From NCBI RefSeq assembly GCF_003334765.1, contig NZ_QOWT01000027.1: 57,545 bases of DNA. One strand, written 5' to 3'. The first letter of the stretch is position 1. The number at the start of each line of letters is the position of its first letter. This document shows, piece after piece, positions 33,316 through 33,548 of this stretch. The translations under genes were made by a program, and so were the position numbers. The notes under the pieces were generated by a model. The model ran no database searches. It had not been told where the DNA came from and was given only the letters and a program-made list of their open reading frames with translations. This DNA comes from Escherichia coli (lineage in GTDB: Bacteria; Pseudomonadota; Gammaproteobacteria; Enterobacterales; Enterobacteriaceae).

Positions 33316-33317
33316 GA

Positions 33318-33535
33318 GCAATTAACTATTTGCCGGATGCGGCGTAAACGCCTTATCCGGCCTACGGTTCGATGCGATTTGTAGGTCGGATAAGATGCGC
33401 AAGCATCGCATCCGACAATAAGTGCCGGATGCTGCGAAAATGCCTTATCTGGCCTACAGATTCGATGCGATTCGTAGGTCGGATAAGATGCGCAAGCATC
33501 GCATCCGACAATAAGTGCCGAATGCGACCTACATT
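33318..33535. repeat. tandem REP/BIME cluster (two units of about 100 bp)
   Basis: tcgatgcgatt(t/c)gtaggtcggataagatgcgcaagcatcgcatccgacaataagtgcc occurs twice (about 33370 and 33472), flanked by REP-like gccggatgcggcgtaaacgccttatccggcctac. Confidence 0.8.
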
Positions 33536-33548
33536 CACATGGCGCTTT

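Follow-up and report, generated by a model that had tools for sequence, protein, structure and literature searches.

A BIME-2 array, REP72abcd, between ybhC and ybhJ of Escherichia coli: anatomy, strain-variable copy number and a repeated-peptide reading frame as by-product

The analysed stretch of Escherichia coli DNA (contig NZ_QOWT01000027.1 of RefSeq assembly GCF_003334765.1; 57,545 nucleotides, hereafter the window) contains two convergent genes, ybhC and ybhJ, whose intergenic region spans exactly positions 33316-33548. The stop codon of ybhC occupies 33313-33315, that of ybhJ lies at 33549-33551 on the minus strand, and the gap between both stop codons is filled by a tandem array of REPs. 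A 633-bp query centred on this array was 100% identical to the genome of E. coli K-12 MG1655, as it was to those of many further strains. The spacer corresponds to 805765-805997 in NC_000913.3, with ybhC and ybhJ annotated on either side, so that the placement of the array in an initial annotation of the window, made from the sequence alone, agrees with the RefSeq annotation of an identical sequence. The mechanically called ORF of ybhJ begins at a GTG located 8 codons upstream of the RefSeq start (35811-35834, minus strand; 761 vs 753 aa), a trivial difference. The elements of the locus are as follows.

32032-33315, plus strand: ybhC (427 aa), the upstream convergent gene, with the array as its 3' flank
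33331-33365, minus strand: y-type REP no. 1 (35 nt), with 0 mismatches to the y consensus GCCGGATGCGGCGTRAACGCCTTATCCGGCCTAC
33366-33380: long linker A1, GGTTCGATGCGATTT (15 nt), between the CTAC and GTAG feet
33381-33417, plus strand: z2-type REP no. 1 (37 nt), with GTAG at its plus-strand 5' end; hairpin of -19.9 kcal/mol
33418-33422: short linker ATAAG, joining z2 no. 1 and y no. 2 head to head
33423-33457, minus strand: y-type REP no. 2, degenerate, differing from y no. 1 by 4 substitutions
33458-33473: long linker A2, AGATTCGATGCGATTC (16 nt)
33474-33510, plus strand: z2-type REP no. 2, identical to z2 no. 1
33511-33515: second short linker ATAAG
33516-33533, minus strand: partial REP, TGCCGAATGCGACCTACA (18 nt), with y/z head and foot, the centre missing
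33534-33548, plus strand: TTCACATGGCGCTTT (15 nt), terminator remnant (3' arm and T-run), running to the ybhJ stop codon
33549-35834, minus strand: ybhJ, the other convergent gene
33384-33454, minus strand: Rfam naRNA4 (RF02564) match, a two-hairpin unit formed by y no. 2 and the inverted z2 no. 1
33372-33779, plus strand: 135-aa ORF, in which the 20-aa peptide MRFVGRIRCASIASDNKCRM occurs twice, 31 codons apart

Tandem Repeats Finder reported a single array at 33331-33526, with a period of 93, 2.1 copies, 91% matches, 0 indels and a score of 334. The gap-free repeat search returned one pair of 65 nt (33368-33432 and 33461-33525, 97%, spacing 93) and one of 35 nt (33331-33365 and 33423-33457, 89%, spacing 92). 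Unit-by-unit alignment delimited unit 1 at 33331-33422 (92 nt) and unit 2 at 33423-33515 (93 nt), differing by 6 mismatches and one indel of 1 nt, all of them in the first half of the unit, in y REP or long linker; over the 42 nt of z2 REP and ATAAG both units are identical. The initial annotation had described a unit of roughly 100 bp, duplicated almost perfectly: the duplication itself stands and the wording was loose, the unit being 92/93 bp long and its two copies about 92.5% identical. Tandem duplication was also evident in the self dot-plot of 33300-33560 that had been proposed as a check, in which the top 60-nt diagonal window contained 59/60 matches at offset 93, against a mean of 27.3 and a maximum of 32 (of 60) over 200 base-shuffles. 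The duplication is thus genuine and greatly exceeds what chance would produce.

Each unit is composed of a y REP (35 nt), a 15/16-nt linker, an inverted z2-type REP (37 nt) and the 5-nt linker ATAAG, the order along the array being y-A-z2-B-y-A-z2-B-partial. The 35-nt palindrome, TGCCGGATGCGGCGTAAACGCCTTATCCGGCCTAC, ends in CTAC and the 37-nt palindrome, GTAGGTCGGATAAGATGCGCAAGCATCGCATCCGACA, begins with GTAG; in all four REPs (35, 37, 35 and 37 nt) this GTAG (CTAC on the other strand) lies outside the stem. In y no. 1 the GTAG is found at the minus-strand 5' end; seen from the plus strand, the element is an iREP with a terminal CTAC. Its hairpin folds with about -21 kcal/mol (-21.3) and has an internal two-base mismatch; an unpaired mismatch of this kind (AA/GC-type), situated between the outer and inner stems, is shared by y no. 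1 and the two z2 units. Compared with the -21 kcal/mol of y no. 1, the hairpin of y no. 2 is weakened (-12.6 / -8.7 kcal/mol). The partial REP at 33516-33533 corresponds to the extra 0.1 copy of Tandem Repeats Finder and was found in every BIME-bearing allele aligned. RNA folds of the array yielded -118.7 kcal/mol (z = -10.0) for the plus strand and -104.3 kcal/mol (z = -6.9) for the minus strand.

The assignment of the 37-nt palindrome to z2 relies on its length and architecture, and its outer stem resembles that of y. At 37 nt it is as long as the canonical z2 at window positions 1691-1727, and the two align without gaps, 29/37 positions being identical. Six of the eight differences fall in the stem, where they form three compensated pairs (C-G to T-A, T-A to G-C and C-G to T-A), and two in the loop. 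The outer stem reads GTCGGAT/ATCCGAC here vs GCCTGAT/ATCAGGC in the canonical z2, and the inner one GATGC/GCATC vs GACGC/GCGTC. Alignment of the same palindrome to z1 needed 7 gap positions, and its alignment to y was gapped as well.

REP and BIME elements have been described since the 1980s. A REP is defined as an imperfect palindrome, 30-40 nt long, in which a conserved GTAG lies 5' of the foot of the stem, and a BIME-2 as y and z2 REPs that are inversely oriented, have short linkers between them and occur in tandem copies; tandem BIMEs at one locus are well conserved, while their number differs between strains (PMC3333891). The ybhC-ybhJ array displays each of these traits, namely palindromes with GTAG and a stem mismatch, y and inverted z2 REPs in tandem, an extragenic position, dispersal in the genome and variable copy number. 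Two findings that would have spoken against this identity, palindromes not shared with other REP loci or a region that is not intergenic, were both excluded, and no observation contradicts it. A tandem REP array was what the initial annotation had recognised, and the mismatch-free y consensus, the inverted 37-nt z2, the GTAG/CTAC feet and the stem mismatch all bear this out. The y REP occurs four times in the window (in the array and at 1652, 6927 and 23632; 0 expected by chance), and the palindromes matched a median of 25 places per genome, in 5426/5426 complete E. coli genomes. A locus-specific minisatellite unrelated to dispersed repeats, which had been considered as a candidate, was refuted by these genome-wide matches together with the exact y copies elsewhere. 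In the column 'Terminators and REPs' of a published Table 2, ybhC is listed with REP72abcd (PMC10100675); this designation denotes four REPs and thus agrees with the four-REP dissection given here. A search of the K-12 RefSeq feature table for a REP feature returned the CDSs of ybhJ and ybhC alone. The array is a BIME-2, catalogued as REP72abcd in K-12 and hence already known; its copy number is strain-variable and the ORF that overlaps it is a by-product.

Several further structured elements were observed in the window. One BIME-2 unit, consisting of y and canonical z2, lies at 1652-1727 and gives the top naRNA4 score of the window (78.4 bits); it is followed by a degenerate REP-like palindrome at about 1744-1775. 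BIME-1-type elements are located at 6927-7026 and 23632-23729, each comprising a y REP, a roughly 36-nt linker with CAAATTCAATATATTG and a 30-nt z1. The linker/z1 part of both passes the gathering score of the Rfam family ES036 (RF02751; 43.3 and 43.4 bits vs 37.6), the matches lying at 6961-7003 and 23666-23707, so that this 'sRNA' family appears to be modelled on a BIME-1 linker. A Moco (molybdenum cofactor) riboswitch aptamer (RF01055, 103.6 bits) is located at 22257-22401 on the minus strand, and presumably represents the known moaA leader of the K-12 map.

In the array region naRNA4 was the sole Rfam family matched. The match extends over model positions 1-77 of 77 and is a marginal pass (60.7 bits vs a gathering score of 59.5); the other REP pairs of the array scored 23-42 bits, under the threshold. 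The naRNA4 model was built on the y+z2 unit of REP325, where HU binding and DNA condensation have been reported (PMC4550694). The match confirms the y+z2 architecture of the array and does not point to an independent RNA gene.

Copy number was surveyed in 5426 complete E. coli genomes, and the following counts are estimates from BLAST summaries of a redundant collection.

0 units (REP-less, 69-bp spacer): 527 genomes (9.7%), by an allele-specific 120-nt query with at least 80% covered
1 unit, all types: about 2088 genomes (38%), by subtraction (4869 REP-bearing minus 2781)
1 unit, with A2 as the linker that follows y no. 1: 216 genomes, by the unit-2 junction query at about 93% identity
At least 2 units: 2781 genomes (about 51%), by the unit-2 junction query (y no. 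2 and linkers) at 95% identity or more
3 units: at least 4 genomes, matched colinearly by a synthetic 3-unit query, one of them inspected
Copy number unassigned: about 30 genomes, the remainder

The unit-2 junction query (67 nt) matches just one place per genome. Two copies of the junction were present in 8 records, one place being on a plasmid, which serves as a rough guide to the 3-unit genomes. The same locus was found in six genomes by a DNA-pattern scan that took one genome from each species; its states are listed below.

Escherichia albertii NBRC 107761: 5.1 tandem 93-bp y+z2 units (locus sequence L008, 1481-1954)
Escherichia sp. E1V33: 2 units
E. whittamii: 1 unit
SCPM-O-B-8794 (divergent, labelled 'E. 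coli'): 1 unit
Escherichia sp. MOD1-EC7003: a lone y REP
Citrobacter koseri: no REP at the locus

With 0, 1, 2 and 3 units in E. coli and 5 in E. albertii, the variation between strains that had been anticipated from the single sequence is a fact of this locus. Several of the E. albertii units carry stem-weakening substitutions. The y substitutions T11, T19 and T28 occur in the second unit of both K-12 and E1V33, which argues that the two-unit state predates the split of these lineages and that the array position is orthologous. Within each of these genomes the two z2 copies carry one and the same loop variant, CAAG in K-12 and TCAG in E1V33, a pattern that suggests homogenisation or gene conversion within arrays. 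The 1-unit allele of strain EC20-4B-2, in which y no. 1 is followed by A2, had been considered as proof of a crossover inside GGCCTAC, the TnpA-REP cleavage site; this claim was dropped because in other Escherichia species, too, a y no. 1-like REP is followed by an A-type linker of 16 nt, and the allele could be an older variant instead of a recombinant.

Alignment and terminator scanning of the REP-less allele revealed two crossed intrinsic terminators of the hairpin and T-run type, one per strand (3 sites vs 0.4 expected in the scan). In the 69-bp spacer of E. coli strain 06-00048 (locus sequence L003, 501-569) the terminator T-runs overlap both stop codons. C. koseri has a single terminator in the same place, with a 15-bp stem and T/A runs flanking it on both strands, of which the scan called the minus-strand form only. 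In the BIME-bearing window the scan found 0 intrinsic terminators between 33000 and 33900, and the alignments showed that BIME alleles keep only CATGGCGC-TTTTT, a remnant of the plus-strand terminator made up of its 3' arm and T-run (window positions 33534-33548). The array thus occupies the common 3' region of two convergent genes without an intrinsic terminator, and is highly structured on both strands. About 45 nt of the REP-less allele were found in no BIME allele, so this allele is not a simple deletion derivative and, judged from the alignments, would be either ancestral or imported. It is possible, and we put it forward tentatively, that the spacer represents a natural allelic series, two crossed intrinsic terminators having been replaced in it by a BIME-2 that comprises 0 to 5 units.

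The literature on the family offers a mechanism for how such an array could arise and act. The palindromes would have arisen and spread as non-autonomous elements on which the REP-associated Y1 transposase TnpA-REP acts; this enzyme binds and cleaves BIMEs, and in vitro it can also recombine them (PMC3333891). Units would be gained or lost through recombination or slippage between near-identical 93-bp units. Transcribed from either gene, the hairpins may act as 3'-UTR elements that block 3'-to-5' exonucleases, and they may partly stop readthrough, replacing the intrinsic terminators they displaced. REPs are reported to shield upstream mRNA from 3' exonucleases and to be partial Rho-dependent terminators; between convergent genes they correlate with higher expression of both, and about 40% of the REPs so placed coincide with mapped bidirectional terminators, their effects varying greatly from locus to locus with context (bioRxiv 10.64898/2026.03.23.713779). 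On the DNA, the y REPs would be potential gyrase sites; gyrase cleavage sites are over-represented in BIME-2, chiefly in y REPs (PMC6379681). Neither in the supplements of PMC6379681 nor in those of the 2026 REP preprint did the ybhC/ybhJ locus have a gyrase or REP entry; generic differential-expression rows for ybhC and ybhJ were the only hits, and the literature searched yielded no gyrase, 3'-end or half-life data specific to this locus.

Other explanations of the array have to be weighed against a BIME-2 with a role at the 3' ends. It might be purely selfish or neutral, a set of parasitic palindromes without host function at this locus whose copy number drifts by slippage. The absence of the array from 527/5426 genomes, the range of 0 to 5 units with no fixed state, the weakened stems of y no. 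2 and of several E. albertii units and the variable, context-dependent REP effects found in the 2026 preprint all speak in its favour; indeed, the decay of y no. 2 and the stem-breaking changes in E. albertii fit weak or no selection on individual units. Set against this are the loss of both intrinsic terminators from BIME alleles, so that something must set two convergent 3' ends, the z2 stem differences, all of which are compensated, so that either selection or a copying mechanism preserves the palindrome, and the retention of the array at the locus in at least 5 Escherichia lineages. On balance we consider a wholly neutral array rather unlikely, while giving it appreciable weight.

Far less probable is that the array is a gene for naRNA4-like nucleoid-associated sRNAs, which would bind HU, bridge DNA cruciforms and condense the chromosome. 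The RF02564 match (60.7 bits vs 59.5), the weaker matches over other REP pairs and the origin of the model in the REP325 y+z2 unit, with its reported HU binding and DNA condensation (PMC4550694), speak for such a gene, but the match shows just another y+z2 pair and every BIME-2 would match. Moreover, 0 promoter-like sites were found in 33000-33900, and in a 2026 preprint, which shares authors with the laboratory of the 2015 naRNA4 report, REP325/naRNA4 had no measurable effect on nucleoid compaction and REP-REP contacts were not HU-dependent (bioRxiv 10.64898/2026.03.23.713779). A locus-specific tandem duplication without any dispersed family scarcely deserves credence: locus specificity does hold for the long linkers and for the variant y no. 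2, the 67-nt junction query matching one place per genome, but the palindromic parts are dispersed y and z2 REPs with exact y copies elsewhere in the window. It is equally hard to credit that 33372-33779 is a real gene encoding a small protein with an internal tandem repeat. This reading can draw on 135 open codons, on an ATG start, on a 31-codon unit that stays in frame and on a frame that is open in a 1-unit allele too (one locus compared); the composition and the record of the ORF contradict it, as set out below together with its counterpart on the other strand.

33362-33538, minus strand: mirror 58-aa ORF, in which LLSDAMLAHLIRPTNRIE occurs twice; equally spurious

The ATG of the 135-aa ORF lies in linker A1. 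The ORF is 408 nt long: BIME DNA, and hence dispersed REP sequence, makes up the initial 177 nt, and the other 231 run antisense to the 3' end of ybhJ. The 93-nt unit equals 31 x 3 nt, which keeps the frame open and makes the peptide repeat, and the palindromic nature of the repeat leads one to expect an equally repetitive ORF on the minus strand, as is the case. No Shine-Dalgarno sequence was found ahead of the ATG, comparison with Pfam and NCBIfam gave 0 matches, permissive E-values included, and no CDS other than ybhC and ybhJ was seen under the match among the 95 RefSeq rows listed. A search of some 15 billion predicted proteins gave no exact match to the 135-aa sequence, yet the K-12 DNA of this region is heavily represented in public assemblies. 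Both the start codon and the N-terminus are non-existent in the 527 REP-less genomes. It is well supported, then, that the 135-aa ORF is spurious, an accidental open frame, and the initial annotation had rightly traced the twofold occurrence of MRFVGRIRCASIASDNKCRM to the array.

Taken as a whole, the explanation that combines BIME-2 identity with the proposed origin and 3'-end role and with an accidental ORF is, in our judgement, very probably the best one. If the terminators were indeed replaced, insertion of the array would have turned two factor-independent terminators into a REP-dependent 3' end for ybhC and ybhJ, and the number of units would tune the expression of both genes. The allele series, with 0-3 units in E. 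coli and 5 in E. albertii, is a possible natural test bed for the debate on REP termination and stability; together with the displaced terminators it is a modest curiosity and not a discovery. In practical terms, REP arrays should be masked before ORF calling, as a 93-nt unit (31 codons) gives convincing repeat 'proteins' on both strands.

Compared with the BIME-2 family, the array shows nothing essentially different, its particularities being a z2 variant with compensated stem changes and a degenerate y no. 2. With BIME-1 it has in common the y REP and the inverted-pair design. A BIME-1, however, consists of y, an L linker with an IHF site and z1, with a 30-nt z1 and a linker of about 36 nt, and occurs in single copies, whereas the array combines a 37-nt z2 with linkers of 15/16 and 5 nt in tandem; no z1, no long L linker and no ES036 match were found at the array. 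REP325, located between yjdM and yjdN, likewise has the y+z2 two-hairpin unit and an Rfam match above the gathering score; it differs in having six units and in lying inside an operon, as opposed to 2 units between convergent genes here, and has been described as a partial Rho-dependent terminator and mRNA stabiliser (bioRxiv 10.64898/2026.03.23.713779). In the same naRNA4 comparison the array reached 60.7 bits vs 78.4 for the BIME-2 at window positions 1655-1725. Finally, the REPINs of Pseudomonas are, according to PMC3116915 and PMC3337134, likewise inverted REP doublets, thought to be the mobile unit and associated with a Y1/HUH transposase; these RAYT-mobilised elements belong to another sequence family and another host, and no RAYT gene lies near the ybhC/ybhJ array.
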